A stretch of 64,000 bases of DNA from Plasmodiophora brassicae (Eukaryota). The stretch is from NCBI GenBank assembly GCA_036867785.1, contig CP145416.1, positions 1,178,001-1,242,000 on the forward strand, read 5' to 3'. Positions 10,320 through 48,884 of the stretch are shown here, in pieces (within the stretch, counting starts at the first letter, position 1; each line of letters opens with the position of its first letter). The notes under the pieces were generated by a model. It made no database searches, was not told where the DNA came from, and saw only the letters and a list, made by a program, of their open reading frames with translations. The position numbers were made by a program, and so were the translations under genes.

Positions 10320-13300
10320 TCAGTGCTGTAAGGCGTGCAGATGGGAGTAGGTGCCGCCGGCCGCCACAAGCTCCGCGTGCGTCCCTTGCTCGATGACCCG
10401 GCCTTTCTCCATGACCACGATCACATCCGCGTTCTTGATCGTCGACAGCCGATGCGCGATCACGATCGACGTACGACCTTTCATGAGCGTGTCCAGCGCC
10501 GCCTGCACGAGGGCTTCGCTTTCGTTGTCCAGTGCACTCGTGGCCTCATCGAGGAGCAGCAGTTGCGGGTCGATGAGCAGGGCCCGGGCGATGGCAATTC
10601 GTTGGCGCTGCCCGCCAGACAGTTGCGACCCGCGCGTCCCCACAAGGGTTTGCAACCCATCCGGGAGCCTGTCGATGAACTCGGACGCATTTGCCTGTCG
10701 GGCCGCTTCCTGAATCTCCTCTGTCGTCGCCGACGGCCTGCCGTAGGCGATGTTGTCGCGAATCGACCCGCTGAACAGGACGGGTTCCTGGGATACGAGC
10801 CCGATCTGCCGTCGGAAGTCGACGACGTTCAGGGCGGTCAGCGGCACGTCCCCGATGCGGACGGACCCAGCGCTAGGTTCATAGAAGCGCGCGATGAGGG
10901 CGACTGTTGAACTCTTGCCCGACCCGGACGGTCCCACGAGCTGTTCAGAGAGACCGTCAATGAAGGCAGACGTGTGTAGACGAACGATGCCCAGGTACCG
11001 CGAGAGTCTTGCCGGCAGGGCACTGAAGACGCAGCTTGTCCAGGACTGTACTGTCGGGTCTGGTCGGGTACGAGAAGTCCACGTTGTCGAACGTAATCGA
11101 CTGGCCGTGGAGCGACATCTTCTGACCCGACTTCGTGTCTGTCGGGTCGACAACGGGGCACATCTCCAGGAAGTTGAAGATGTCCACGGCCGCCTGACGC
11201 GCTTTGGCACCGTCCGGCGCCATCTGCATGACCTGACCGACCCCCATCATGGACAAGACGATGGCAAAGAAGACCTTGAACAGGTCGATTGGGGTGTTCA
11301 TCAAGCCTTCCTTGACGAGCCAGGCGCCATAGTAGAATGCAACGCAGTACACGGAGAACATGACGAACTGGCTCATGCCGAACGCGGCACCCGCTGCAAT
11401 GGCTTGAAGGCGGGCAGATGCGGTCACCGGCCGGAGCTTAGCGTCAAAGTCGGCAATCACCTACATAGGAGCGACGAGCGGTTAGGAACACACACGCACG
11501 CTTCACGGGGGGCACTGGCAACCGACCTGACGTTCGGCCGTAAGTGACGCGACCGTGCGGATCGCGCCACACGCCTCGTTCGCGATACGACCGGCAAACT
11601 CGAACGCAGCCTTCTGCTTGTTGTCAACGATAAGGGCCAGCTGTGCGGCGCCGGCAATGGCAAGGATGGGGCCCGTCGCCAACAGCACCAGCGCCAGTCG
11701 CCAACCGTAGTAAAACGCAATGCCCAGACCGACAACCAGCATTGTGATCTGTACGACCAGCGTCAGCCCGGAGAGCAACCGCATGCAGTGATAATGAGCA
11801 GTTACCACTTGCACCAAGGTTGACATGGAGCCGACTGTCAGGCCCCTGACGCGTTCGCAATCGTTGCTGAGTTTGATATTCAAGATACCAGGCGCGTTGT
11901 CCGGATGGTCAAACCAGGAAACATCCTGCCGAAGGAACGCTCGGAAGAGGTCAACGCGGAGCTTATATGTCAGCCTTTCTCCAACAATAGCAAAGTTCGA
12001 GGTTGCTATCACGGAGGACACCATCTGGTACGCCGCGAGGCCAAAGAAAACGAAGGCCCACTTTCGGGCGCCAGCTTCAACATCTGGCTGGAAGAAAGCT
12101 TTCATCATTTCCGAGAGGATAAACGAAAAGGAGGGCATGACAAGGCCCATGCCGATGGAGCCGAAAACACCCAGAGCGATGAAAGGCCAGTCACTTCGGC
12201 TCTTGTCCCACAGCTTTGACGTCAAGCTTGAGATGCGCGCTTTGACTTCCTTCTCATCACCGGCTTCGGCCTTCCTCGATACCTCTTTCCCATCAGATAC
12301 CGCCCGGGCTGGCCCTTGTTCGAGGTGTGGTCCGGGAAGTTGTGCGTCTTGTTCGCCGTCTGCCTTGGCAGCCGCATCAGAGTCGGTGCCACCATGCGAT
12401 TTCAGCATGCGGGAGTAGATGCCGTCTTTCGCGGAAAGTTCATTGTGGTTGCCCATCTCAGCAACCGACCCATTCTTCAGCACACAGATCAGGTTCGCAT
12501 CCCTAGAAAGGGATATTAAATGTATACATGTCAACAGATCTTCTCCGGGCGAGCCACCCTTACCGAATAGTGGATAAGCGATGGGCGATGACGATGGCCG
12601 TTGTTCCCGACGCCGCTTCCTGAAGAGCTTGTTGTACAAGACGTTCACTCTAACATGATAGGAATAAGCGTATGCACATGGAAAGGCACGGACGATGTCA
12701 GCCTACGTGGGAATCTAGGGCTGAGGTCGCCTCGTCTTGCACTGAAACACAGGTTCAGTCGTTGTGTCGCCGAATGGCCAAGGCGGGCAGTAACGTACGC
12801 AGAATGGGGGGTTTGTTTGCGATTGCTCGTGCAATCGCAATTCGCTGTTTCTGTCCACCGCTGAGGCGCTCGTTGCCACTTCCTCCGACATCGGTGTCGT
12901 ATTTCTCGGGAAGATCATTGACAATGAAATCGTGGCAGTGGGCGACGCGAGCCGCGGCTTCGACCTGTTCCATCGTGCAGCCTCTTCCATACGCGATGTT
13001 CTCGCGAATGGTCCCCGCGAACAGGGTTGGCTGTTGGAACACGACCCCGATGTGGCGACGCAGCTCAGAAACGCTGACATCACGAATGTCGATCCCGTCG
13101 ATTGTGATACGCCCCTCATCGGGGTCGTAAAACCTTGTCAGCAGCTGGCCAACCGTCGACTTTCCTGCACATTCCGTCATCACGTTGCGTGGTAACCAGG
13201 CCCGCGTACGATGACGGATACGAACCAGAGCCCGTCTCTCCGACAAGGGCGGCCGTGGACCCTGCAGGAATGACCAGGTTGAACCCAGACAGAACCTTGT

Positions 13301-14902
13301 GGTGACGACGACCCGGATACGAGAAGTGTACGTTTTCGAAACGGATCTCGCCTCGGATGGGTGAGGGCAGCGTCGTTTTCGCTGGCGATTCCGACAACGC
13401 GTCGATTTTCGACTTCCGACGCATGACCGACCACACGCCAGGGGCCACACTGAGACCGGTCGTGATGGCCGTCACGGATGGGCCGATTTGCCCTACCAAG
13501 GCATTAGCATTGGACAGACGCAGATCTGACCGAATCTGCCACCTAGTCCGGATGCTCCCGTGACGACACTGAAGAACACGGTCATGACCGTCCCTTGTTC
13601 GTATTTGCCGGATGCAATCAGGTGCCCGCCGTACCACAAGGCCGATCCATCTGTGCAGCTGTCTAAGAAGCCACCGGCAGCAGTTGGCGGGTGACACGCC
13701 CACATGCTATCAACATGGACGCCCACATGGCCCCGATGGAGGCCCCGACAATGCGACCTTTGCGGATACCCGTTTCGGAGGCCAAGTGAAGGTTGCCGGC
13801 AAACCTATGTGCGAGGTTATATGCACATGCGCCACAGCCGCTCGACGCACCATCGAGCCGACCTTTCGACCTCACGCTCCTGAGAGCGGAAGATCGTAAC
13901 CGTCCTGATTGAACGCAGCACTTCTTCGGACACTGCGCCTGCCACCGCAAACGCATCCATCGCTTTCGTGTTGTCTTTGGAGAGGGCCTTCGCAAATGCA
14001 GCACCTGGATTACAGCAATCAGGCAGGCACGCCACTGGGAAGAGCCGACGCGGGCTGACCAGCAATTGCAAGCAGAGGAACAGACGCGAGCACGACGAGC
14101 GTCAACTCCCATCCCTTGTACAGGCCGACTGCCAGTCCCCCAATAAACATGAACCCAAACTGGAAGCAATTGCCAATGTTCTGCCCCATCGCATCCCGAA
14201 CCTGAACGGGCTCCTCAACGGCCAAACCGGGGGCCTCAAATGACGGGCGCCGCACCTGTGTTATATCGGCACCGAGCCGGGTCGACAGCTTACCGGGTTC
14301 CTGTGTATCGAACCAGGCACATTCCTGGCGCAGAAGCGACTGCAAATACGTCTTGCGAATGTGCAGCGCCTGCCGATCGGCCACCAGCGCCCAGCACGAT
14401 ACCTAGGGTCCACGATTCAACTACATGGCCATACGCATTCGATGGCGACCGCCTACCTGTAGCCATGATGCGGCAAACGCGACGAGGCCGACATAGACGA
14501 ATTGGACGCATATCTCGGATACTTTGTCGTAGAACTGTTGGCTCGACAATCCGCCACCGAACGACTGGAACAGATTGCCAAACAGAATCGAGAACGCTGC
14601 ACAGTACTGGGGAGTCAGTCTCCGATGCCGACCACCTCGGCGTCCGATTACCGGGGAGCGACAACCCGTTGACGATTCCGCCGATGGCGCCGAGGACGAG
14701 GACGCAGACCTCGAGCGGCGTCGTGAATTCAAACATCTGGCGTGTGGCGTCACACATCGCATCGTCGGGCAGTGCGCTGCGATGCGACCTGTATCAAGGT
14801 GACGCGCGGGACATCGTCGCCGGTGGACATGGACGATTCCCCGTCCGGGACGACCTTGGGCTGTACGCCCATCTCGACGTCGACATCGTCGGGCCTCACC
14901 AT
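10320..14902 (-). CDS. Full-length ABCB/MDR (P-glycoprotein-like) transporter, multi-exon
   Basis: Two TMDs ([28 protein letters not shown]) and two NBDs ([64 protein letters not shown]). Confidence 0.93.
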
Positions 14903-15049
14903 CGTACGTGCGCAGTGTGTACGACGGCAGCCCGGTCTTGTGTGGCGGGCGGCCAGAGGAACGTCACCCGTCCGCGTGGGGCTGTGCCAACCCGAAAGGT
15001 TGCCCATCACACGCACGTCACCGAGCAGCAGCCGCAGACGGCCATCCTC

Positions 15050-15996
15050 ATGTCAACCATAACCTGGAGGCAGGCCGCGCTTAATGGTCTCAGTGTAGGA
15101 CGTCAGTCGCGACTCGCTCCCTCTACCAATCGCGCCGCCGGGACCACATTGATCGCACGAAACTCGATGCCGGAGCGCGCTGATGTGGCGATCAGGGAAC
15201 GGAGACAACCCTTTGACCCGTTACAATGATATGGCTGGGAAGGGCACAACTCGATCACACGGATCGCCGGTTTCGGGATCGCCGATCAGTTTGTGCTCTC
15301 CCAGAGTTTGGCTGACCCACGGAAACACAGGCTGTTCCGTGCGATCGTCGTCGAGCTGAGAGCGGCGTTAGCTGAGCTAGACCTATTAGGTCCGGCAACG
15401 CTGATGACTATTTCGTAAGCTGCCGCGGAGGACGTTGCTTGAATTGGCTAGTGTTTAATCCCTTCTCACTCTGTGGTTCATATTCCTCGTGGAACAGTTC
15501 GGTCTGAGCAAAGGATCCGTATGAAACGTCTACCTGGAGCAGTGGATGCAGTCGTCGCTATCGGCGACGATCGGCCGGGTTCCCGGCCAATATGTCGTCC
15601 ACGCGTATCAGCTGATGTTAGCCGCTGCGAGGAACAGGCCGGTTTTCGTTGATGACGTTTTCCAGCATTTATTGAGTATTCCGTTACCGACGCTCGGGTG
15701 ATCACGTATAGCGGATTTCGCTGATTCATACCTAACGAAGCACCGGCAAATTATTCACATACGGCGCATCATCGTCTCCAGGACTCGACGATGCCGGTCC
15801 CCAACTGCCGCTCAGACTGGATGACCGTAATGGCGTCATGGATCTCGGGGTTCTTGACCGTTGCTGCGGGGTACACCTCATGGCCACCCGGCGACGGTCG
15901 CGTGTTGTCGAAACCATTTGAAATCAACGACGTTGTTGACGCTGTTTACCGCACACTCTTATCCGAGGCGCCCGACAAGCGTGTGATTGGGTATTC
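15050..15996 (+). pseudogene. Degraded coding fragment of unknown family, truncated by the large hairpin
   Basis: Protein-like frames continue across in-frame TGA codons at 15227-15229 (PFDPLQ*YGWEGHNSITRIAGFG..) and 15699-15701 (IPLPTLG*SRIADFADSYL); gtaagc donor near 15414. Confidence 0.35.
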
Positions 15997-17154
15997 GGGT
16001 TCAGTTTCCCGCGTTTCTCACGCATTGCAGTGCGGTCGATTATTCGGTTATCGAGGAGATGCGGTCGCTGACTGAACAGGGCGTTTCCGTTGAGGGGTAC
16101 CATCGCATGCTTCTGGAATGACATACTGCCAGGTACTCCCGTTCCCAGATCCAGTGGTTCGGGTCTCTTCAACACTGCACGAAGGGGATTGGGTACGCTT
16201 TCACCAGAGAAATGGGTAATTCTCCCCCTCAGTTTTCATCCTTTGCTGACCCCGACCGTTATAAACGGCTTCGTTCCATCACCTTCGTACCTCAAATACT
16301 GTTTGGTGAAATTCCACGGACAGGTACGACCGCTCATGGACTTCTCATGCAGACCGTCAGTGGCCGAATCTTGAAACTGGGCCATTCCTTCAAGATCCCA
16401 AAATTGATTCGTCGTTTCAACGGCGAGAAGCTTGTTGAGGCCCTGTTCACGCGCTGTAACGAGTTCGACGAGCCGATCGTGGAGATGCTGACGTTCGGGG
16501 CCAGCCTTGCCGAGCTGTTGCCAGCATTGCGCGGCTTCATGAAGCGTATTCTATTGAAGTCGGAAACGAAAAGTGACGGTTCGGGCAAGCCGCTCAATAG
16601 AATACGCTTCATGAAGCCGCGCAATGCTGGCAACAGCTCGGCAAGGCTGGCCCCGAACGTCAGCATCTCCACGATCGGCTCGTCGAACTCGTTACAGCGC
16701 GTGAACAGGGCCTCAACAAGCTTCTCGCCGTTGAAACGACGAATCAATTTTGGGATCTTGAAGGAATGGCCCAGTTTCAAGATTCGGCCACTGACGGTCT
16801 GCATGAGAAGTCCATGAGCGGTCGTACCTGTCCGTGGAATTTCACCAAACAGTATTTGAGGTACGAAGGTGATGGAACGAAGCCGTTTATAACGGTCGGG
16901 GTCAGCAAAGGATGAAAACTGAGGGGGAGAATTACCCATTTCTCTGGTGAAAGCGTACCCAATCCCCTTCGTGCAGTGTTGAAGAGACCCGAACCACTGG
17001 ATCTGGGAACGGGAGTACCTGGCAGTATGTCATTCCAGAAGCATGCGATGATACCCCTCGATGGAAACGCCTTGTTCAGTCTGTGACCGCATCTCTTCGA
17101 TAACCGAATTGTCGACCGCACTGCAATGCGTGAGAAACGCGGGAAACTGAACCC
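15997..17154. repeat. Large inverted repeat IR1: 561-bp arms (15997-16557 / 16594-17154), 36-bp spacer
   Basis: Mirror ORFs 16212..16817(+) and 16334..16939(-) translate identically except across the spacer; symmetry centre at 16575/16576. Confidence 0.97.
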
Positions 17155-17766
17155 AAACAAACTCGGGCAGTTGAGCGAGAAAGCCTTCGTGGTAAGCACT
17201 GAAAGTATACCAAGGGGCCTTGCTACCCTTGCGACGCGTGCAGCGGTACGTCCGCGCAACGATGAAGTAGCATGAATCGCGAGTGACGACACCACGTCGA
17301 TCTGTTGTCCAAGAATGGTGGATGACATTATAGTCACCAGACTTGGCCTGTCGTGTAGACCGTCTCTGCTGACAATGAGGACAATGAATGGGGATATCGG
17401 AGGCCTCGTCTCCGGATCCCACACAAACACGTCGTAGACGTAGAAGCGATCCGGACCCCGAACAGCGCTGACGCACGGCCGCTCAACCAAAACGGACCCA
17501 AAGTTGTCCAGAGCGAAGAAGTGTGAGAATGGAGCTGTCGACGCTCTTGGCGTTCTCTAGGATGGTGTCCAGGACATTCCGCATTATAGGCGATGCGGCA
17601 TCACCTTTCTTGCCCTTCTTGCCGCGATTCCCACCTGTTACACTTCAGTGACAATATTTACATGCCCGTAGGCCAGCACAGCACTGTGGATGACGACCTT
17701 TCGTGACTTGTTCGTTGATCCTGGCTTGCGTCCCGCTCCAGGTCGGTAACCGCCGCGACCGCCCAT
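16558..17766 (-). pseudogene. Transposase-like pseudogene (DUF6729-like Cys domain followed by MULE-like DDE start)
   Basis: MGGRGGYRPGAGRKPG N-terminus; VFVWDPE..CPHC..YFIVARTYRC..FLAQLP..FPAFLTH..E*H; GRILKL(G)HSFK..NEF..PSLFVSD; internal stops and frameshifts. Family assignment is from recalled motifs. Confidence 0.65.
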
Positions 17767-17898
17767 CCCGCAACTGTTTGCCCGGGTCAGAGATCGCCTT
17801 GCAGCAGTGCAGCTCCAAGAAAATGCGGGCTCGTGCAACAAAAAACCATGGCGTATGTAGGAAAACTTTTACGCAACGAATCAAAAGTCAGACGCCGA

Positions 17899-18207
17899 CA
17901 GACGACGAAGTGGGGGTCGATTCCGAAGACGGTGATGACGCTGGAGCCAGCGATCGAGTATGTGATGAGTCCGCAAATCGGGCCGCGATGCAAGGAGGTC
18001 ACGACCCGGCGCCACTGCAGCCGCCTTGGCCGTCATCGGACCCAGGCCAATCTTCCTCGGGAGACGCCTCGCCAGTTGAGTCTGACGAAGATTCATCCGG
18101 ATCGTGACCTCCTTGCACCGCGCCCCGATTGGAGGACTCGTCACGTTCTCGATCGCTGCCTCCAGCGTCATCACCGTCTTCGGAATCGACTCCCACTTCG
18201 TCGTCTG
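17899..18207. repeat. Inverted repeat IR2: 111-bp arms (17899-18009 / 18097-18207), 87-bp spacer
   Basis: cagacgacgaagtggg..gtcacgacccgg mirrored; about 10 mismatches, no indels; arms encode acidic DDEVGVDSEDGDDAG. Confidence 0.93.
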
Positions 18208-18322
18208 CGGCCAGTTTCTGCCTCTCACCGATCTGATGAAGGTAATCACAGGTTGTTTGCGAGAAGTCGTCACTGCCAGAATCATCATCGTTGTCGCGGT
18301 GCTGGTCGGTTAGGCGTACAGG

Positions 18323-18516
18323 AACCCCGGAACTATCGCACAGTAATACCATGGGTGCAGGTCGCAAGGCGTCGCCACTGGACAGGTCCGGGGGCAGGAC
18401 AGGGACCAGCGCCAAGTTGACTTTGCGCTGGTCCCTGTCCTGCCCCCGGACCTGTCCAGTAGCGACGCCTATTGCGACCTGCACCCATGGTATTACTGTG
18501 CGATAGTTCCGGGGTT
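18323..18516. repeat. Near-perfect 194-bp palindrome IR3 with almost no loop
   Basis: aaccccggaactatcgcacagtaataccatgggtgcaggtcgcaa... mirrored; one 2-bp indel and about 2 mismatches; centre aagt-tg-actt. Confidence 0.96.
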
Positions 18517-18652
18517 GTTTTCGAGCTTTTCACACAGGCGCCTCAGTCTCGGGCCATGCCATCGCTGGGCGGCAAGTGGTTGCAACGAGAAGATGAGGAG
18601 GGCGCCGCTGAGCCTTCAGCTGCACCGATGACGACGCGCGTGCTGGCGCATC

Positions 18653-18920
18653 GACCAGCAGCTTCAGCTAGTTGCTCAGCACGTTGATCCAACACGTAAG
18701 GTCATCGCGGAGAACATGGATCTCGGCCTTGTTTAGCCATATGTCCGTATCTTCATTGAGAACCAATTGGGGACATAAGACTTCGAGGAGCGCCTCGGGG
18801 CACTATATGTACAAGCCGAGGAAGTTGATCTTGATGAGGAGGAGGCCGAGATCCACGTTCTCCGCGATGACCTGTGCGTGTTGGATCACCGTGCTGAGCA
18901 ACTAGCTGAAGCTGCTGGTC
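18653..18920. repeat. Inverted repeat IR4: ~77-bp arms (18653-18729 / 18843-18920), 113-bp spacer
   Basis: gaccagcagcttcagctagttgctcagcacg..gatctcggcct mirrored; 3 mismatches and one 1-bp indel. Confidence 0.92.
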
Positions 18921-20218
18921 AAGAACTCGACGAGCAATCTCGAGACGCAAAGCGCGGGCGTCGCGCGGCCGCGGCGGCTGCCCGGCGCTGAGCGCCATCG
19001 TCCAGACGCCGTCGCTCGCCAATGTCTTCCCCCGAGAACACTGAGCTCCATGGAACCCCCAAGCCACGCGACGCTTCTAGCCTGCAGGAGACCATCTATC
19101 CAACTCCGACGTGTTCGACTGTGCCACGGTCTGCGTCCGCGTACGTACCTAGCACTGGCCGCCCGTTCACTCAGGGTCATTATCATCAAGGTGATCATTT
19201 CAGCTGCGGATCTGTGGTGCAGTTCCGCCCTTTCTCGATAAACTCGACTGCTGGAACGATCTTGTTCTCCTACGTACTGCGGCAACGTACTTTCCCCGAG
19301 TGCCCGTACGTGTTTGTTATTGCCGTTCTCGTTGTCGTTCTTGCTGGTAGTGTTAGTGTCGGTGTTGTTGTTTAGGTGGCTGTGATGGTGTTTCCTGGGC
19401 GGTTCGTGTTGGCCTACGAAAAGAACTGGTCGACGCTGCCGGGTATTGCCAGAAACTTAAATGCTCACGCGACAACGGCTCTGGCACGGAGCAAAGGACG
19501 GCGCGACGAACCCTGCGCTGCCAAGCCGATCCAGTTAATTTGCATCGCGATGTCGGCCACGCTGAACTTGACAGGTACCCCAGAACTTCCAATGGGTGAC
19601 GGTCTCCAAGTTCGCCTCCCAGAGGACCTTGCAGGCCGCTTCATCTGGACTTCGGGATCGCCATGCGACCCGCCTTCTCTCCGGGAGGAATGGACGTCCA
19701 GAGCTCGTTCTGGACCGAGTAGGCACCTTGCCCTGTCGGCAAGCGCCGAGGTGCGCTTGGTGGAAACCAACGCCCGTATCTTCTTCGCCTTCGGGTTGAA
19801 TTCGAGCTGGTCGGGCTGGCCGTGGCCTACGGGTGCGGCAATCGTTTGAACGCTGACCTCGCTCTCGCTCGAACAGCTTTGCCGACCGCTTACCGGGCTT
19901 CTGTGAATTGATCCAGGAGCAGTCAGAGACGGTTTTCGCCTGTGCGGCCATCTCACTCACCTAATGCGACCTGTACAATACACGAGTCGTGACAGCGGGG
20001 GCTGCCAGCTGTGTTGTTGGGGTCGGCGGTACCATTCATGGCGTGGTTCGACATGGGACAAGACCAGATTGCCTCACTCGCTGGCGGTCGACAAACGAAT
20101 CAAGTCAGGGATATCGATCCCCGGGCGCGATCGGGTTCAGGCATAGGAGGTACAGGTAGGGCAGCGGCCAGCGCAGCAGTACCTAGTACGCACGGCACGG
20201 GAGACGGCGTGGCCGTGA

Positions 20219-21506
20219 ATGGCGACAGTGGCGATCGCTGATGCGGACGGGGCCTGCTTCGCGCTCGTGCCGCGACGGACGGGGCGCTCGGCGCACTGCC
20301 TCACCATCCGCCTCACACCCGATATCGTTGCCCTCCTGCAGTCCAACCCCAAGACGCCCGTTTCCATTTGCCTGCGCGATGGCGTACTCACCGTTGGCGA
20401 ACAACAGCACAGACTGAACGCGTTCTCTGAGGATTCAAATGTATGTGCAGTGTGCTGCCCCGTTTGTCGACATTCCAACGACTGACTAGAGTTGCCCCTG
20501 GTAGCTGTGCGATGTGTTTGAGGTGTCGAACGCGAAGCAGAACCAGCTGCAGGCGATCGGCAGCATCCACCAGAAGCTGATCGTGCAACGGGACGCGGGC
20601 AGTACGATGGCGAGTCCGAAGCCATCGAGGTCAACAGTGACGACATCGACAACGGCAACGACGAAGAAACGGGCACGGGAGGCGTCGGTCGACCTGTCGT
20701 CAACGAGCGCGTTGAGGAAGCAATCTCAGTCCCCTCTGATCTCGAAACCAACAATTTCGTCGCCAGGCAGGCTGTCGGCCACAAACAGGTTGACGCCGAC
20801 GCCAAGATCTGTACCGGATCCCCTGCGTTTGTCATCGACCTCGAAACGGACAGCCAAGCCACAACGACCATCGCCTACGTCAGCGAACACCGACCTGAGC
20901 ATCAAGGACCAGGTCATTCACCTGCTAGCCATCAGTCCCCTATCCGCTATGAGCATCAGCAAGCGGCTTGGGCACGCCACGAAATCACTGATGCCCATAC
21001 TGAAAGTCGTTGCGCGGTACGAGATTCCAGGCAAGTATCACCTGAAAGAGGAGTACCTGCAAGTCGTGTCGCTGGACAAATGGCCGTATACCGATGAGGA
21101 ACGGCAACGTGTTGCAGAAACGTTGACCGGTGCTGGCCTGCCTGTACCCACCTCATCGTCCGGGAACGCGGCGACGCCTGAGGTGACCGACGGGCCAATC
21201 GCATCACATGACGAATACCTGGCTCTCAGGGATCGCTTCGAGCGGGACTACGTGAAGTACGAGGAGGTGGACACGCGTCTCAAGCAGATTGCCGAGCAGT
21301 TCGCCGATCTGTCCCGTCAGCTTGACGATGCCGCGTCTGCCAGGGAGCGGCAGCGCTTGCAGAATGACGTCCGCCGACTGTACGCCAAGGTGAAACCGGA
21401 ATCGGACGCGTTGAAGGCCGACTTCGCTGCTATGCACGCCGCCCTGTCCAGCATCAAGGCCCGCATCAAGGACTACGTGGCGAGCATCGTTTCTGGAAAG
21501 TCCTGA
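20219..21506 (+). CDS. RNA polymerase II elongation factor ELL-like (occludin/ELL C-terminal domain)
   Basis: IKDQVIHLLAISP..ILKVVARY..YHLKEE..WPYTDEERQ; C-terminal IASHDEY..RFERDYVKYEEV..L..IKARIKDY; one intron near 20441-20503. Confidence 0.75.
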
Positions 21507-30922: not shown

Positions 30923-31115
30923 TCGACAGTAAACCACAATATCGGAGCACCCGGGAGCCGGGTTGTGATATGTCGCCCAGTGGGACTCATGCGTGGTGAG
31001 CCCTGCCCCTGTCCCGTTGACTCAACAGATTGAGGGGAAGGCACACAGGTGTCAGTGCAACTGTGAAGTATCGACCCGACACAAGTAACTAGTCGAATCT
31101 TTTCACAGGCGCGCT

Positions 31116-32780
31116 ATGCGGCGAATAGGATTCTCGCTCAAGGCGGTCGCGTTACTCGCGATTCCAGCGCTGATCACGTTGGCATCGTCGCAGCCCGTAT
31201 TTGTCAATAACGGCGGCCAGCCAGACCAGGAGATCCAGCATTTCCTTAATGCCCTCAACCTGGAACGTCCCGGCGACGTCGTGACTCTCGAGGATCCCCA
31301 GGAGAGCCCGTCAGCAGGATCCTCAACGTCGCCTGAACAGCCCACTCCCGCACCGACTCCGAGTCCCACTCCGGCGCCAAGTACTGTCTTCCCGCCGCCT
31401 CCCCAGGTGCCGCTGGCACTCGCTGACACGCCACGTGCACAACTGCCAAGTCCTCAACCGACTCCTGTGCCCACCCCAAAGCCAACCCCGGTTCCACCTC
31501 CAGGTGTAACCCCAGAGCCGACTCCTGCGCCAACTCCAAGGCCCACGCCGGCACCAACGCCAGTACCAACTCCAGAGCCAACCCCGGCGCCTACCCCAAG
31601 GCCAACCCCGGCACCTACTCCAAGGCCAACCCCGGCACCTACTCCAAGGCCAACCCCGGCACCTACCTCGAGTCCAACGCCAGCGCCGACTCCTAAGCCG
31701 ACACCAGCTGCAACCCCTGCGCCCACTCCAGAGCCAACCTCGTCGTCGACTGCAGCGCCCACTCCAAAACCCACTCCCGCGCCTACTCCGAATCCCACCC
31801 CAGCTCCTACTCCGAACCCCACTCCAGTGCCAACTCCTGCTCCAGTGCCAACTCCTGCGCCAACCCCGGCGCCTACTCCTGCGCCAACTCCAGCGCCAAC
31901 TCCAAAGCCTACCCCTCAACCAACTCCGGCGCCTACTCCAGCAACTACTACCCCAGCACCAACGCCAGCGCCGACCCCTAAGCCAACGCCAGCGCCGACC
32001 CCGAAGCCAACGCCAGCGCCGACCCCAGCACCAACGCCAGCGCCGACCCCAGCACCAACGCCAGTGCCGACCCCGAAGCCAACGCCAGCGCCGACCCCGA
32101 AGCCAACGCCAGCGCCGACCCCGAAGCCAGCGCCAGCGCCGACCCCTGAGCCGACGCCAGCAACTACTCCAAAGCCAACTCCGGCTCCTACTCCAGAGCC
32201 AACCCCAGCGCCTACTCCAAAGCCGACTCCAACGCCCACTCCAAAGCCAACGGCGGCTCCTACTCCAGAGCCAACCCCAGCGCCTACTCCAAAGCCGACT
32301 CCAGCGCCCACCCCAAGGCCAACTCCAGCGCCTACTCCAAAACCAACATCAGCGTCTACACCTACGCCAACGCCTGCGCCTACACCTGCGCCTACACCTG
32401 CGCCAACGCCTGCGCCTACACCTGCGCCAACGCCTGCGCCTACACCTGCGCCAACGCCTGCGCCTACACCAAAGCCAACACCTGCGCCGTCACCAAGGCC
32501 AACCCCAGCGCCAACCCCTGCGCCTACACCAAGGCCAACGCCAGCGCCAGCGCCAACTCCAGCGTCCACACCAAGACCCACCCCAGCGCCGACTCCAAAG
32601 CCCACCCCAGCGCCGACTCCTGAGCCAACCCCAGCGCCAACCCCTCTGCCGGAGCTTACTCCTATGCCGACGCCCAGTTCCTTGACGCGCTCTATCTTCG
32701 ACGCTGAGCGCGACAGCATTCTCAAGAGGTTGTCAGATGGCCGTGCTGGGCACCGCCATAATAGCCTCTTCTTCATGTAA
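31116..32780 (+). CDS. Secreted Pro/Thr/Ala-rich repetitive protein (extensin/mucin-like), 554 aa
   Basis: Signal peptide [25 protein letters not shown]; more than 400 aa of [16 protein letters not shown] repeats. Confidence 0.88.
31340..32680 (+). repeat. Coding tandem repeat, 12/24-nt units (PTPx)n
   Basis: Blocks such as ccaacgccagcgccgaccccgaag (~31960-32160) and cctgcgcctaca/cctgcgccaacg (~32370-32470). Confidence 0.9.
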
Positions 32781-39200: not shown

Positions 39201-42200
39201 CTACCTTCTTCAGTTTCTCTAAATACCACGCTGCTCGCGCGGTCCAGAAGCAATCCTAATCTTGCTTCGTTGGGCATGTCGAGAGAGGTGTCCCCTGTGT
39301 CAGCTGCGGGCTCTTCTTCTACTACGAAACCTCCATCGCCGCAACATAATGACCCGAGCCGTGAATCTGTCGAGTCCAGTCTTCCTAAGTCCGTCCTGCG
39401 GTCGTTCATGTACAGCGCACAGCGCACATATAGGACGCAGAACACTGAGTAGGTGCATTGTCCCTGGTAACGTTGCATGCTCGGTCGATGATGACTCCTT
39501 TAGAATGCTGCGCTGTTTCTTTGCCCACATCAATGACGCGCGACATCGTGATGGCTTCGACCTGCTGTTTGCCGATGAGTTGTCATTCACGTATTGTTTT
39601 GAAATATCCCTACCGACGGGTGTCTCAGCGAACCTCCAGTACGCGGTCTGCTTGGTTTCTTCAGTTGATGTCGGTCATTTTGAAGACATGTTGATGGCAA
39701 TGTCTAAATGGAACGCAACAGGTCTTGGTGGAAGTGTGGCTGGATCCTCTCGATACTGCAGAAGTATCTTGTCGGTCCTTATTCCAAACAATCATGGACT
39801 ACTTTGACAAATCCGACAAACTGACACTTCAGTCTCTCCAAGTCTTCCACAGTATTCAAGACGCTCACCGCAACAACGTGCTGTCGTTGCGGGGTTCTCG
39901 TCGGGTTGAGCAAAGTCACATGAATGCTGTCTTCAGATACAGTAGTCGATCGCGTCACTCGCGATGCGCAGTCGAAGACTTTCGTGTTCAGGAATTTCCC
40001 TTCGATATACTTCCGTTAATGCGAAACGCAAGACCTTGTTTCGTTCCTCTTCGCTTTCCACACGGTCGTAACCTACCGCCCACATGGTTGTATTGTTTGC
40101 TCATACTCGTTGAATCTAGGCCTTGCTGTGTCACAGACGTGCGTGTTGGAGTCTTTATGCCGAATCCCGTCCATCGTCGAGGTAGTGCCTGGCGCATGTT
40201 TCGCTCAGGTCGTCGACAGGAAGACTGTAACTCTTGCCTTGCTGACTGCCGACGTCGATACATCTGGTAATTTACGTGCAGACTGGTTGCTCGGCATGAT
40301 TCTAACTGAGTAAGGCCTTTAGTGGCGTCGCTGGCATCCGACGTCAAATCCTTGATGGCGTATGCCAAGGAAATACTAGACCGTTTATGTGGAGACGCTG
40401 ATCGTCGTGAGAGCGAAAACATTGTCCTCATCTTTGAGGTTGCTCTGGAAGACATCTTGGACTCCAAATCTGAACTCAGAAACGTCGTCGCAAACTTGAT
40501 AAAATCAGGCGCATCTGCTATAGAGTCAAATGCTGTTTATCAGCATGAATGCCATCACTCATCAGCTCTGGTCAGTGCTGTGTATGTCCATGTGCTGATG
40601 TTCTTTTAAACATGGCCGGTAGAACATGCTTCGTGACCTAATCGAGCACCTCCATTCAATTTATTTCGCCCAGGAGGTGTTCTCGAATCTCTCACATGGG
40701 TCGAACGTATCAGACGATGATGTCAACGCGGTAGCTTTAGATCTTTTCATTCACCCGACCTCGCAATGATACTGTCTCCAGGTCGTCTCTTCGCTTGTCG
40801 ATTATTCTAATCACATCAATATTACAAGCGTTATTTGCAATGGCGCTGATTACCAAGCTATGTCGGCGTCGCTCGACAAAATCATCAGGGAATGCCTTCG
40901 CGCAGTAACTAGCAGCTCAGATGATTGGGCGACGCCGACATACTTCATCTTCGTTGATGGGAATGGTTTGCAAGAATCTGCGCGTCATTAAGTAACGATG
41001 ATTCTGATTCCGTGCGTGTGACAGAGTTTCATAACGATGACGCTGCGGATACTGATGATGATTCGGACGACCTTGCTCCAAACGTTTCGAGAGCTGGAAG
41101 TCGGGCAGAGCACTTGCTAGACGTAGGCTGAGTGTATTGCTGTAATGGAACTGGGCTTGACGTTCGACACAGCCCTCAATTCCGGATGCAGTACCGTTCT
41201 GCATGCGGTTCGAAGTTGTGGTCCGCAGTGACGACCGCGTCCTTGCCACAATTCCGATTTCGTCTGGGTCAAGTTCGAGTGCTGCATTCGACCAGGCGCG
41301 CCAATCTGCCAGGGATGCTGCCCAAGACGGAACGGCTCCGGTGGTCTTCATGCGAATAACATGTTGCACTTTTCGGTTCCGCGAATGGTGTCTTGGCTGT
41401 CTGTGCGTTGTATGCTCTTGACGCTTACTGCCGTGCTGTCTAACAGGGAAAGCTATCGTTTCGGTGTGGATCCAGATGTGTCCACTGGTCTTCGGAAGAG
41501 CACTTCGATGTCGGCGTTATCGTCTGCGTCGACTTCTCCGATATCTATGAGACGCCTGAAACTTGGCGGGTTCTCTGTGCTTCCAGAACCTTTGTCCAAG
41601 CAGATGGCTAGAGTATGTCAGAACAGGGTAATTCGCAAACTTCCCCGGATGTCAACAGCTATCATGTTTTAGATATCCAAGCAAATCCGGAGCATGTTTG
41701 CAGACCAAGTTCTTCGAAACCTACAGAAACAGGTCGGTGTCTACGATGTAGATTTGTAAATTGTCCCAACTGAAAACGAGCTGTTTTCAGCTTGGCACGA
41801 ATTGGTCACCCGACAATGTAACTGAAGAGCTGCTCACGGATATCCAGCTACATATGGGTCGGCTTAGAGACACACATAAGCTACAGAAACGCATCCCCAT
41901 CGATTTTGTTTCTCCTGGTTTGGTCAGTCTGCATCCATGTCAGGCAGTTTCTTGCCATATTCACATCGATGTCTTAGGCCACGGCATCCATGTTTCTGAG
42001 GGAGTTTGGAGCCAATCATATAATCAGTGTTCACAAGGTTGGTAGCCTTGTATTTGCACTTCGACCACCTCCGTGGCTTCTGGTAATATTCAGTGAGTCA
42101 CTGGAAATCGCGCATATCGTCTTGCACAACTCGTTAATCGACGATCAAGCTGCGCTTGCCACTATTGCGCTTGTGCAGGACGCGCTATATGCAACTGTTC

Positions 42201-45200
42201 GTCGAGTTAACCAGATTACCTTGCTGAACTCTCTGCACGTGTCTAGAGTCGCCTCCCCCGCTTTGATCCCGCCGTGTGAAACTGATAATGTGCATCGATC
42301 TGCATCATCTGCTGGCAAATTTCCAGCTGGGAGTCTCTCATGTCCGTGCGTTCTAACGCACGACATCCCTTTGCATGTTCGGCTGGGCTCCGCTGCTGCT
42401 CTTGAAACGCTTTCGGACACTGCGCTTCATCCGTTTACGATTACCAACCGTCGATACGTTTTCGTTATCCAGCAACAGTCTGGAAGTGTGTTCTATTTGA
42501 GAATTTGTGCTGCTCGGGATGATATTCTTCGCCTCGAAGTTTTTGGTGTTGATCCTCCCGACGATGAGATTCGTGAGGAGCTTCCAAGGCTGGTGAGAAC
42601 AAAGGTTGCATCCGCGACAATCAACATCTTGTCTTCCTTGCTGTCAAGGAACGCCCAGTTCCGCATGCTCCCAGACGATCTCAGTTTGGTGCGTCCAGGG
42701 CAGTCGGCTCCGTCTCGTGCGGTCTGCTATAGTTTTGATGGGAAGAATGCGAACCCACTTTCATTCATGCTTATTCTGTCGCAAACTCTGCGTCATTCTC
42801 CTTGTCTCTCCCCACTTCTTTTGTCAACACCTCCACCGCTGACGCTACCCTTGAGCACACCACATGATGGTAATATTGTCTCCTGGATCTGGAGTGACTT
42901 TGCCTTCGTGTACAACTTTGGTACGTCAACATACGACGGCATAACGCTTCGGATTCGGTGACATCTACGTTTAGATGAAAGATTTGATGTATCGAAACAG
43001 CTCGGCAATGGCCTTGCCATGATTTTCTGTTCTCTTCTGGATGAGTCGGGGCGCGTGGTGCGAGCCGTGAAGCCGTTCAATAACTCTCGTGATGAAGACG
43101 TGCAGGTAGCAACTTACCTAGCACATACAGTTTTGTGGAAGTTCAAATGTCATTCCTAGGAAACACTCAACAACCCGGTTACCATCGAGGATATAGCTTG
43201 CCGCGAAGGTTTGCGGCCGCCAATGGATCCATCATTGTTTTATGAACGTTCATTGCTCACAGGTGGGATCTCGGTTATGGACAGCACCGTCGTCACTGGA
43301 ATATGGGATTATACTTCGAAGCGGATCGCGATATCTATGGAAATCTGGATGCTTGGAGCCGTCAACATTGAAATGCTCGTCGACCTGTTCAGCCAATCGT
43401 TTAAACAGGTATAAGTCGCACACAAACGTTTCTGTATTCATTAATATTGTGGGACAGGCATTGTCAGACTTTCGTATTGAGTGGGCCTGGAATCGCTTCG
43501 ACCGAACGCCTACTGGCAGTTTGGATATGTTGCTGGTTCACGGACAAACTATAGAGAACCCGACCGTCAGCGTGACCTCGTTTGGATTTCACCTGTAAGC
43601 ATATCGGCTGCAAAGTATTTATCCTTACGCCCGTACTTATTGCCACAAGGCCGAGTTACTGTCTAGCAAGCGTCGTCAAAGAAATGGTTTCAATGATCAC
43701 TCCTGTTTGCGAGTGCCAAGTAGCAATGTCGTCGCAAGAGAACAGCTGGGTTTTCGTCCCGGACGTTTCTACGATGACAATGAGGTAATAGCGACGACGT
43801 TGCGTTTTCTTTGAGGTCTCCTTATAAAGTGTGTATCTCTAGGCATCCTCAGGTGGTCCGAATCGTCGGCCGAGGTACTGGTTCGAATGAGCATGTCCTG
43901 CGGGATAATATTATCGGGCTGGAGTGTGCGTATTCTGGCTCCGTTGCTAAGGAGGCGGTAACTCACAAACGTTGCTCCTTCGTGATCGTTACAATCCAAC
44001 GACGGTCTATTCGAATTGTTACGTACAATTGGCGCCCCAACTACACAGCCCAGCTGAGTGAGTGGGGTCGTATTTTAAATGACATGTTCGGGGTGAAGAT
44101 TGAACGTTCCTGCTTACAGCTAAGCAGACAGCACGCTTAGCGTCATGGACCCAATTCCGACTACATCTTCTGGAGGCCGTTCTCCATCAAAAGCTTGGTT
44201 TGTTCAACCATGTACCGTGTCATCCGCCGGCAGTATCGAAGGAACCGGTGTCGTCAAAGGATCCTCCTTCAACTGTCCATGCCCGGTTCACTGTTGACAA
44301 CATCGCTACGTTGGTTGAGCACGAGGTTCGCAACTTGCGCGACAATGTCAATGCTATGGAAACATTACATGGAAATGATACAGGTACCACCACGCCATCA
44401 AATCCATGAAACGTCGCAACACCTAACATCACCTACCGACTTGCCGACGTCCGTACCAGTTTGTCGAATGCCCATGCTCGTTAGTAGCTGCTAATAGTAT
44501 TTCTGCCAGTGTATCTCATCATCGAGGGGGGCGCGGACGAATTCCAAACCGGTTTGAGGTTCGAAGACGATCGCAGAAGGGTCCAGGAACCCGTCCCGGA
44601 ATGCGAATGCATCATGCTAGTGGATCCATAGTTGGCAGCCCAATGGGTAGCTCAGTGCCTTTTAGTTCCGTTCTTCGCGGCGCTCTTCCTGACACGAGGT
44701 TGGACATCGTTGTACGTGATCGCCTGTGTCTAATGCGTTTTTAGTGTAAAACTCCATGCCGATCCAGTTTACCAGCATGGTCAGGCATTTCTGGCTGTTG
44801 CAAAACGTCTAAAGGAAGTTGGCGATAGCGAAGCTCGACGCGAGGTAATCTGTACCTTCGTTCGCTGGCTTGACCTAATCAGATTGCCTTCAAGTTCTGC
44901 ACGATACTTTGCGAAACTAGTTCTGGGCCGTCCTCTGCCTCCAGCGCAATGCAGCTAGTCTGGATTGATTTTACGGTTTCCAATGCGACGTTTCTCCAGG
45001 TCAGGCCTTTGCTTTCGGGTTAGTATTCGCGTAGTAACGGTCAATTTGAAGTCTTGCACTCTGCCCTTCATGTTCCTTTCTGAGACTGGGGACGCGAAAA
45101 GCCCATCATCGTGGAGTGAGACTTTCATTGGGCAATTTCTTAGCCATTTGCAGTCGACATCGGGCGTTTCTTCTCTGCTGGGAGCTATCCAATCACCAGG

Positions 45201-48579: not shown

Positions 48580-48884
48580 GTTAGGTACGACCCGTCTGGA
48601 GATATCGGGGGGCAGCGTATCCAGATGCCCGTGGCGTCCGTCCCCCGTCAGGGCCGTCCCCCAGGGGCGCTATTTGTGGCGCCGCACCATTTCGCCGCCA
48701 CAAGGAGCGCATTGTCCGAGTAGAACTGCAAGGCGCGCATTGTCCCAGTAGAACTGCAAGGAGCGTGTTGTCCCAGTAGAACTGGTACCGAACGGGGACA
48801 GAATCGATACTCGGAGCGAGGGGGTTGCCCATAAAGGCAATCCCCACCTATGTAGGAGGGAGTGAACGACTAGTTGTACCTAAC
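48580..48884. mobile_element. Candidate ~305-bp non-autonomous element with short terminal inverted repeat and internal minisatellite
   Basis: gttaggtacga (48580-48590) versus ttgtacctaac (48874-48884), a 10/11 inverted match. Confidence 0.3.
48701..48784. repeat. Minisatellite, 3 x 28 bp
   Basis: caaggagcgcattgtccgagtagaactg / caaggcgcgcattgtcccagtagaactg / caaggagcgtgttgtcccagtagaactg. Confidence 0.92.

Follow-up and report, generated by a model that had tools for sequence, protein, structure and literature searches.

Where does the double-stranded RNA (dsRNA) behind the small interfering RNAs (siRNAs) of Plasmodiophora brassicae come from, and could a cluster of palindromes in its genome be one of the sources? 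The locus that raises this question lies in a 64,000-nt stretch of assembly GCA_036867785.1 (contig CP145416.1, positions 1,178,001 to 1,242,000 of the forward strand), which we call the window and whose own numbering is used throughout. Within 2.9 kb of it, four unrelated inverted repeats (IR1–IR4) stand side by side. On balance, we favour reading IR1–IR4 as scars of fold-back repair that act as hairpin precursors of siRNAs.

The P. brassicae genome comprises 25.22 Mb with 10,120 genes, and the organism makes abundant phased 21-nt small RNAs (sRNAs) with a 5'-C bias, which arise chiefly from intergenic regions and then from transposable elements (PMC13547706). The same report shows a palindromic region that produces sRNAs and describes two Argonautes and a Drosha-like RNase III with long dsRNA as its substrate and siRNAs as its products, while Dicer and RNA-dependent RNA polymerase (RdRP) are reported absent and the source of the dsRNA is given as unknown (PMC13547706, 2026). 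Long genomic hairpins would be the simplest candidate source. The present locus offers four of them side by side, one of which has a stem of 564 nt and a target family that can be identified and is expressed, and makes the stated question testable with existing public small-RNA libraries.

Four unrelated inverted repeats cluster in one part of the window

A repeat scan yielded the following inverted repeats, given with both arms and with the arm identity from a gapped alignment:

IR1: 15994–16557 and 16594–17157; arms of 564 nt, spacer of 36 nt; 554/564 columns identical (98.2%)
IR2: 17899–18009 and 18097–18207; arms of 111 nt, spacer of 87 nt; extendable with one gap to 17894–18211 as a whole (arms of ~111–116 nt); 105/116 columns identical (90.5%)
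IR3: 18323–18417 and 18420–18516; arms of 95 and 97 nt, spacer of 2 nt; as a whole (18323–18516) a near-perfect palindrome, found as two segments in the scan; 93/97 columns identical (95.9%)
IR4: 18653–18729 and 18843–18920; arms of 77 and 78 nt, spacer of 113 nt; as a whole 18653–18920, found as two segments in the scan; 74/78 columns identical (94.9%)

These alignments bore out the arm sizes and divergences given in the initial annotation. When positions 15000–20500 were compared with the 64-kb window (blastn, word size 9, E <= 1e-3), the only matches were the four reverse-complement ones of the repeats with themselves, which upholds the earlier claim that the repeats are mutually unrelated; no extra copy of them turned up in the window. 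The whole-window scan returned seven inverted pairs, six of which compose IR1–IR4. The seventh measures 35 nt at 71% identity and is the sole other pair, so the statement that the window holds no comparable inverted repeat elsewhere also stands.

The clustering was pronounced by each measure applied. Among reverse-complement 14-mer pairs lying within 1500 nt of each other, 575 of 591 fell in 15900–19000; simulated windows (n = 100, first-order Markov) averaged 8.6 such pairs and had at most 20. For four points to fall inside 2927 of 64000 nt, the probability is ~4e-4. A term search of two genome papers returned no mention of nuclear inverted repeats.

Divergence between the arms of IR1 is unevenly placed. 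All 10 arm differences lie within the outer 107 nt (15994–16100 and 17051–17157), which therefore differ by 9.3%, an arrangement with a chance probability of ~6e-8, and the inner 457 nt (16101–16557 and 16594–17050) are identical.

The repeats are present in independently sequenced DNA

The stretch was present in 20 of the 24 public runs listed, 14 of the 24 carrying at least half of the sampled words; the runs that contain it span nine studies and include plant metagenomes, and no RNA run is listed among them. For positions 15000–20500 we aligned contigs from two DNA runs of different studies (X1 and X2) and from two probable RNA runs (X15 and X16). The contig evidence from these four runs comes from 32 listed pieces out of 150.

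DNA contigs of X1 and X2 cross the outer left junction of IR1 (15000–16026) with 0 differences and reach 33 nt beyond it; taking X15 as well, contigs pass position 15994 by 33 to 40 nt, again with 0 differences. Spacer positions 16590–16593 of IR1 are covered in both X1 and X2 and carry the window's letters and no others. On the right arm, an X2 contig (16594–16943) has a depth of 136.7, ~1.9x that of the single-copy flanks (70.3), which fits two identical arms collapsed in the k-mer graph. The IR2 spacer is bridged by contigs 17917–18189 in X1 and X2 with 0 differences, and X2 contigs end 30 nt into each IR3 arm, the break point that a k=31 graph gives where a repeat is genuine. For the DNA runs, none of these pieces reached the centre of IR3 or the interior of IR4.

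These data bear on the possibility that the palindromes arose in assembly. Fold-back chimeras are a known artefact of long reads, polishing might have added to them, and the identity of the inner IR1 arms is suspicious in that light. We nevertheless regard an assembly artefact as scarcely credible. The contigs that cross the outer IR1 junction, hold its spacer letters, bridge IR2 and break inside the IR3 arms are short-read contigs from two other studies; the X2 right-arm contig stands at ~2x single-copy depth; and an artefact would not produce an outer IR1 part that differs by 9.3%. With its junctions supported by independent DNA contigs, the IR1–IR4 cluster is not explained by assembly error.

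The same contigs delimit the surroundings of the cluster. Depth in the DNA runs is single-copy up to ~15919 and from ~19784 on, and 1 to 3.5x in between, where variant contigs and loose ends are also present. Raised depth, variant contigs and loose ends together place IR1–IR4 inside a ~3.9 kb island of low-copy repeat DNA. Its right part is the following feature:

18864–19783: low-copy repeat stretch, depth 1.5 to 3x that of the single-copy flanks (summed DNA contigs)

Loose ends in this right part lie at 18961, 19092, 19144, 19308, 19346 and 19731. Unique sequence is back by ~19693–19784, with long unique contigs that begin at 19693 and show 0 differences. Two short stretches of the island, 17705–17798 and 18961–19144, are common to other genomic places, contigs of both DNA and RNA runs diverging on either side of them; the second has high-depth contigs in both X15 and X16. 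Searches for relatives of the island gave little: tblastx of 17600–19800 against the window returned one marginal match outside the island (E 0.008), megablast of 15900–19000 against a phage collection returned no match, and neither did an exact 30-mer from an IR4 arm searched against metagenome contigs.

IR1 is the folded-back 5' third of a dead gene copy

The largest of the four repeats could be traced to its parent gene. As tblastn query on the window we used P0001, a 1140-aa protein with a DUF6729 domain and a 3'-5' exonuclease domain; a close protein match to the locus, at 76% identity, is attributed by its source to Plasmodiophora brassicae. A gene of this multi-copy family has left a dead copy here, and IR1 consists of the 5' third of that copy folded back on itself; its parts are arranged as follows:

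15878–15994 (+): orphan fragment of the family, P0001 residues 507–545 (tblastn, 87% identity, E 8e-16)
15993–16571 (+): tblastn match to P0001 residues 145–337
15994–16557 (+): IR1 left arm, inverted duplicate of gene residues ~145–333
16558–16593 (-): IR1 spacer, 36 nt, in frame with the right arm on translation
16594–17157 (-): IR1 right arm, part of the original dead gene copy
17158–17798 (-): 5' part of the dead gene outside the repeat, with an ATG at 17584 that aligns with Met1 of P0001
17584–16559 (-): tblastn match to P0001 residues 1–344

The copy is dead by several marks. It carries stop codons at 17483–17485 and 17030–17032, the second of them mirrored in the left arm; an aspartate that is invariant in the family, Asp274, is replaced by Gly (16769–16771); and one-base indels relative to paralogues occur at 17405, 16886 and 16809. 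A window open reading frame of this copy, 17030–17482(-), still matches Pfam DUF6729 (E 1.5e-7). At the 5' side, similarity of the dead gene to its paralogues stops at ~17798, with loose ends at 17705 and 17798.

The two inner borders of IR1 tell which arm is the older. The dead copy terminates exactly at the codon aligned with Asp344, also invariant in the family, and the spacer continues the reading frame of the right arm; right arm and spacer would thus be original, and the left arm an inverted re-copy. At the outer border, the orphan fragment 15878–15994 joins the outer end of the left arm directly, and paralogue contigs from the RNA runs have loose ends there, running past 15994 into coding sequence for the beginning of the exonuclease domain.

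In the sequence of events that we propose, a broken or stalled 3' end would pair on its own strand, or switch template, and then be extended. Applied to IR1, the minus-strand copy of the gene with DUF6729 and the WRN-like exonuclease would have been cut at the codon for residue 344, residues ~145–333 would have been re-copied in reverse, and a stray family fragment (residues 507–545) would have been attached at the outer end. An anatomy of cut, fold back, re-copy and rejoin is as expected from fold-back or template-switch repair (PMC7467729, PMC11724301). IR1 is thus a clean natural example of a fold-back rearrangement in which the parent gene can still be read.

The sharp boundary between identical and diverged arm segments points to a later event. 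Divergence in the outer part of IR1 is near that of IR2 (9.5%), and as read from the sequences each arm has its own derived changes there relative to P0001. The boundary fits an old duplication whose inner part was homogenised later, by arm-to-arm gene conversion or by a second fold-back; an exchange of this kind between the arms would have left the inner 457 nt identical. Homogenisation of this segment needs no selection.

The parent gene family combines DUF6729 with an exonuclease

In the length range searched, P0001 had 12 relatives, all at 24–38% identity. They come from diatoms, a mucoromycete, agaricomycetes and metagenome contigs, a patchy spread. Pfam assigned DUF6729 to 12 of the 13 family members and the exonuclease (DNA_pol_A_exo1) to 10 of 13, P0001 carrying both. 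Sequence searches of the PDB gave matches confined to the exonuclease domain (WRN, EXD2 and mut-7).

In the family alignment (P0001–P0013), D274 and D344 are invariant, and a G-T-N-x-x-E motif is conserved near residue 965. The WRN-like 3'-5' exonuclease sits between the Asp residues and G-T-N-x-x-E. These residues may correspond to the catalytic motifs of Mutator-like transposases, which they resemble, with the exonuclease inserted between them. The Pfam family ZSWIM1-3_RNaseH-like matched 2 of 13 members weakly, at E 0.05, and MULE matched 0 of 13. A structure model of P0001 had a mean pLDDT of 57, falling below 50 over residues 209–366, the putative catalytic core. Judged by these motifs, the parent gene probably encodes a Mutator-like transposase, and the DUF6729 family may be a new type of transposase with a built-in exonuclease. 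It is reasonable to regard the parent family of IR1 as a selfish element.

Related copies exist elsewhere in the genome and at least one is expressed. DNA run X1 holds at least two further paralogue versions that are >=90% alike, and X15 contains a 2816-nt contig of an expressed paralogue (depth 167.9) that differs from the locus by 37 letters and 4 gaps over 16560–17029. Other searches with the family were less informative: matches to the C-terminal part of P0001 in the Atlas scored 0.83 to 0.85 and serve as leads only, viral contigs searched with the family alignment gave 6 pattern matches of which 0 were confirmed, and the term 'DUF6729' was not found in the literature searched.

IR2 and IR3 are near single-copy, and IR4 borders another low-copy repeat

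IR2 and IR3 both have near single-copy depth in X1 and X2, with no variant contigs among the pieces listed. An open frame of 176 aa in IR2/IR3 had no Pfam family below E 0.1, and a word-indexed protein search returned none of 129 scored candidates at E <= 0.01. A single HMMER match to this frame (E 1.4e-6) was rejected, as it consists of 12 short stretches of a 766-aa protein and reflects low-complexity repetition, not homology. Rfam gave IR3 a best score of 45.5 bits against a gathering threshold of 78, from miRNA-precursor families; since IR3 scored the same on either strand, the match reflects a generic hairpin. We also considered whether the spacers of IR2 and IR4, which gave a weak blastn alignment, are themselves decayed palindromes. 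Column-wise identity was near-random, so that they are true spacers, and the 87-nt spacer of IR2 is not palindromic.

For IR4, the right arm together with part of the spacer and the right flank forms one open frame, 18779–18991 (+). In X1 and X2, variant contigs connect 18650/18654 with 18930/18926, on opposite strands, and paralogue contigs of these runs have 3-nt insertions relative to the IR4 region at 18894 and 18992. The IR4 and right-flank frames matched no Pfam family and had no usable Atlas match. IR4 has the look of a re-copy made locally, in inverted orientation, from the end of a further low-copy sequence that is expressed.

Self-contained palindromes of this size could instead be inserted foldback-type or miniature inverted-repeat transposons. 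IR3 and IR4 are indeed small and self-contained, and the X1 and X2 variant contigs indicate at least one paralogue of IR4 and its flanks elsewhere. Such an origin for IR3, IR4 or both is nevertheless improbable in our view, if less clearly so for IR4, the only one of IR2–IR4 with a paralogue: none of IR2, IR3 and IR4 has a flanking target-site duplication on reading of the sequence, the near single-copy state of IR2 and IR3 in two DNA runs speaks against mobile elements, and the single open frame that runs on from the right arm of IR4 into the flank agrees with a partial duplication of local sequence.

What the initial annotation had proposed for the origin of the repeats can now be divided among them. 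It had at least three built from broken coding sequence, a claim that holds for IR1, has weak support in IR4 and is unsupported for IR2 and IR3. The suggested fold-back origin is well supported for IR1 by its continuous frame and by a left arm that is the inverted internal part of the gene; the short spacers of IR2–IR4 fit such an origin, although their parent sequence was not found. The description of the arms as fragments of genomic parasites suits IR1, with its multi-copy, patchily distributed family and transposase-like motifs, and in part IR4, which borders a low-copy repeat, but not IR2 and IR3, which are single-copy-like and have no protein relatives.

Contigs from RNA runs cover parts of the island

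X15 is an RNA run, as shown by a contig in which the 63-nt intron of the neighbouring ABC-transporter gene is spliced out. Its locus-identical contigs include 15498–16033, which crosses the junction at 15994; 16559–16830, which covers the IR1 spacer and part of the right arm with 0 differences; and 17211–17725. X16, whose cover is very uneven, has a locus-identical contig at 17162–17437 that includes the locus-specific one-base deletion at 17405, and two further contigs with 0 differences that span IR2 (17928–18330) and IR4 (18654–18919). Among the pieces listed, no single RNA-run contig spans IR3 or the full IR1. The depth of locus-identical contigs over the single-stranded leader, 17162–17725 (71.8 and 135.4), contrasts with that over the IR1 spacer and arm (2.9); we made no use of this difference because contig depths cannot rank the parts of a transcript.

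As the dead gene has retained its 5' end, both arms of IR1 may be transcribed on the minus strand from the gene's own promoter. If the island is transcribed, each repeat should yield a long hairpin RNA. IR2, IR3 and IR4 fold as three long stems in the predicted RNA fold, with a z of -7.3 for IR3. Each of IR1–IR4 has the form by which hairpin RNA (hpRNA) loci are recognized, namely long inverted arms set close together and folding into a single stem.

Fold-back scars as candidate precursors of siRNAs

The reading that we favour combines two parts, a mode of origin and a fate of the transcripts. Four separate fold-back events, each copying a local stretch in inverted orientation beside itself, would have taken place in a dead island of low-copy DNA and left four unrelated palindromes with short spacers (36, 87, 2 and 113 nt). 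Judged by anatomy, IR1 supports this mechanism well, and for IR2–IR4 it is plausible. The transcripts would then enter the silencing pathway: with 21-nt siRNAs, a Drosha-like RNase III and two Argonautes present and an RdRP reported absent, transcribed hairpins are likely siRNA precursors. siRNAs from IR1 would act on the expressed intact paralogues, much as maize Mu killer acts on MuDR. Observed are the anatomy, the presence of the repeats in independent DNA, the RNA-run contigs across hairpins and the expressed paralogues; the fold-back mechanism and any sRNA processing, silencing effect or selection at IR1–IR4 are inferred.

An earlier screen would have had no means of recognizing IR1. The ShortStack fold size used was 1000 nt (PMC13547706), and IR1 measures 1164 nt, so IR1 could not, we infer, have been called a hairpin locus in that work; its reads, if any, would be found among the siRNAs of unknown origin.

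Several observations weigh against this reading. On the side of mechanism, microhomology at the IR1 junction, as read from the sequence, is at most 1–2 nt. Neither relatives nor targets of IR2 and IR3 could be detected in the window, the DNA runs or the protein searches, and the differences between the arms of IR2 (9.5%) mostly alter the putative peptide and show no sign of constraint. The transposase identity of the IR1 parent draws on the resemblance of motifs and on the weak Pfam matches in 2 of 13 members (E 0.05). As for transcription, the run labels 'RNA?' are guesses, X15 being the one run proven to be RNA and the status of X16 being judged from its uneven cover; contigs yield no strand, ends or level; and the contig over the IR1 spacer and right arm has a depth of only 2.9. 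Finally, mismatches between the arms do not significantly favour G:U pairs, whichever strand is considered, the 8 transitions of IR1 being split 6 to 2 (p = 0.14).

Some of these points also suit a simpler account, in which the repeats are inert scars: by-products of break repair, tolerated in dispensable DNA, that give no meaningful small RNAs and have no effect. In so compact a genome (25.22 Mb with 10,120 genes; PMC13547706), rearrangements would persist only in rare junk islands, and clustering would follow from that alone. The divergence of IR2, which shows no sign of constraint, the failure to find relatives of IR2 and IR3 as possible targets, and the lack of a detected strand bias among G:U-compatible mismatches are all as this account would have them. 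It fits less well with the RNA-run contigs, which match the locus letter for letter, run across IR2 and IR4 and take in the IR1 spacer together with its right arm. A perfect 457-nt stem, once transcribed, is unlikely to escape an RNase III that cuts long dsRNA, and sRNA loci are reported to be mainly intergenic and then in transposable elements (PMC13547706). We hold inert scars to be possible, though not the probable explanation. Should no small RNAs arise from it, the locus would be an ordinary patch of rearranged junk DNA.

At the other extreme, the fold-back scars might have been put to use. The island could serve as a dedicated array of hairpins from which RNA interference, in an organism with neither Dicer nor RdRP, draws part of its missing dsRNA; we consider this reading unlikely. 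Pieces of selfish or other target genes would be captured at a permissive site by fold-back copying; the stems would be kept perfect by arm-to-arm conversion, transcribed, and cut by the Drosha-like RNase III into phased 21-nt siRNAs; and these would silence the parent families in trans. Such an array would amount to a hairpin-based genomic memory in Rhizaria.

A related proposal adds selection, with a multi-target array maintained to silence selfish or host genes and gaining its hairpins by fold-back capture, which would make it equivalent in function to piRNA clusters or to the hpRNA suppressors of Drosophila simulans. Four hairpins of differing origin stand within 2.9 kb and none elsewhere in the 64-kb window, the inner 457 nt of IR1 are kept identical, and IR1 has an expressed target family. 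If RdRP is absent, hairpins are among the few possible sources of dsRNA (PMC13547706), and hpRNA loci that suppress selfish genes are known (PMC10317233). Set against this, relatives are identifiable for only 2 of the 4 hairpins, and ordinary arm-to-arm gene conversion explains the homogenised arms without selection. A selected array is thus doubtful, and we give it little weight.

Comparison with known hairpin loci

Among described systems, the nearest to IR1 is Mu killer (Muk) of maize, a partial inverted duplication of a transposase gene that yields a long hairpin RNA, through which intact elements can be silenced in trans (PMC3440606). IR1 has a comparable make-up, with the 5' third of a dead transposase-like gene doubled back on itself, and it too has intact paralogues that are expressed. 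The two differ in what has been demonstrated: silencing, small RNAs and heritability for Muk, whereas IR1 is known from its sequence and from RNA-run contigs. They also differ in construction, as Muk includes the terminal inverted repeat of the element and is read through from a flanking gene, whereas the promoter of IR1 is possibly that of the dead gene itself. Moreover, the plant pathway uses Dicer-like enzymes and an RdRP, both reported absent in P. brassicae.

The budding yeast Naumovozyma castellii, which is not known to have an RdRP, offers a second comparison. Palindromic loci, transcribed into hairpins, account for 74.1% of its siRNA reads (PMC7528652), and P. brassicae is also reported to have no RdRP and to possess a palindromic sRNA-producing region (PMC13547706). 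The enzyme differs, a budding-yeast Dicer there and a Drosha-like protein in P. brassicae, and the present locus consists of four clustered hairpins, at least one of them from a transposase-like gene. In Drosophila, hpRNA loci, including the suppressors of D. simulans, are inverted duplications of their targets whose endo-siRNAs silence the parent family (PMC10317233, PMC10292708). At the present locus, targets are apparent only for IR1 and perhaps for IR4, and both lineage and enzymes differ.

For the mode of origin, the relevant comparison is with foldback inversions, in which an inverted duplication with a short spacer forms through single-strand hairpins at a break (PMC7467729, PMC11724301). 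The geometry of all four repeats and the cut-and-recopy anatomy of IR1 are alike. The known cases are experimental or somatic and often of chromosome scale, whereas the present four are small, fixed and adjacent to one another, and their junctions show little microhomology.

The initial annotation had likened the locus to piRNA clusters and had offered it as an undescribed system. piRNA clusters extend over tens of kb, draw on many transposon families, are read as single strands and work with PIWI proteins. The locus shares with them the character of a place of selfish-DNA fragments that could give silencing RNAs, but an island of ~3.9 kb with two identifiable repeat families and hairpin geometry makes the analogy a poor one. 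By the form of the arms, hpRNA loci and maize Mu killer are the apt comparison. The annotation's proposal of a small-RNA source is plausible, given the RNA-run contigs across hairpins and what is reported on RNA interference in P. brassicae (PMC13547706). To speak of an undescribed system is too strong, the locus being of a known kind in a lineage in which such loci are only just being described.

Neighbouring genes and other features of the window

The island lies between two genes:

12755–15377 (-): ABC-transporter gene, left neighbour (Pfam ABC_tran, E 8.3e-22 on 12755–13471(-))
20505–21506 (+): ELL gene (RNA polymerase II elongation factor), right neighbour (Pfam ELL, E 3.2e-9; Occludin_ELL, E 2.7e-12)

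The 5' exon region of the ABC-transporter gene extends to ~15377, with an X15 contig over 15190–15377. Its 63-nt intron occupies 15062–15124, is skipped in an X15 contig and has CT..AC ends, which are GT..AG on the minus strand.

Farther along the window, an open frame at 31089–32780 (+) contains a tandem array (31554–32638) with periods of 24, 48 and 72 nt, ~15 to 29 copies and 71–79% matches. The array encodes a repeat rich in Pro, Thr, Ala and Lys, and it coincides with a strong negative GC skew at 30–34 kb. The protein that carries it is probably a repetitive surface or wall protein. Between 38001 and 46000, G+C content is 49–51.5% against 55–70% elsewhere, AT skew is steadily negative, and a single open frame reaches >= 220 aa (41978–42961). 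A short tandem repeat lies at 48701–48784, where a 28-nt unit occurs in three copies with 91% matches.

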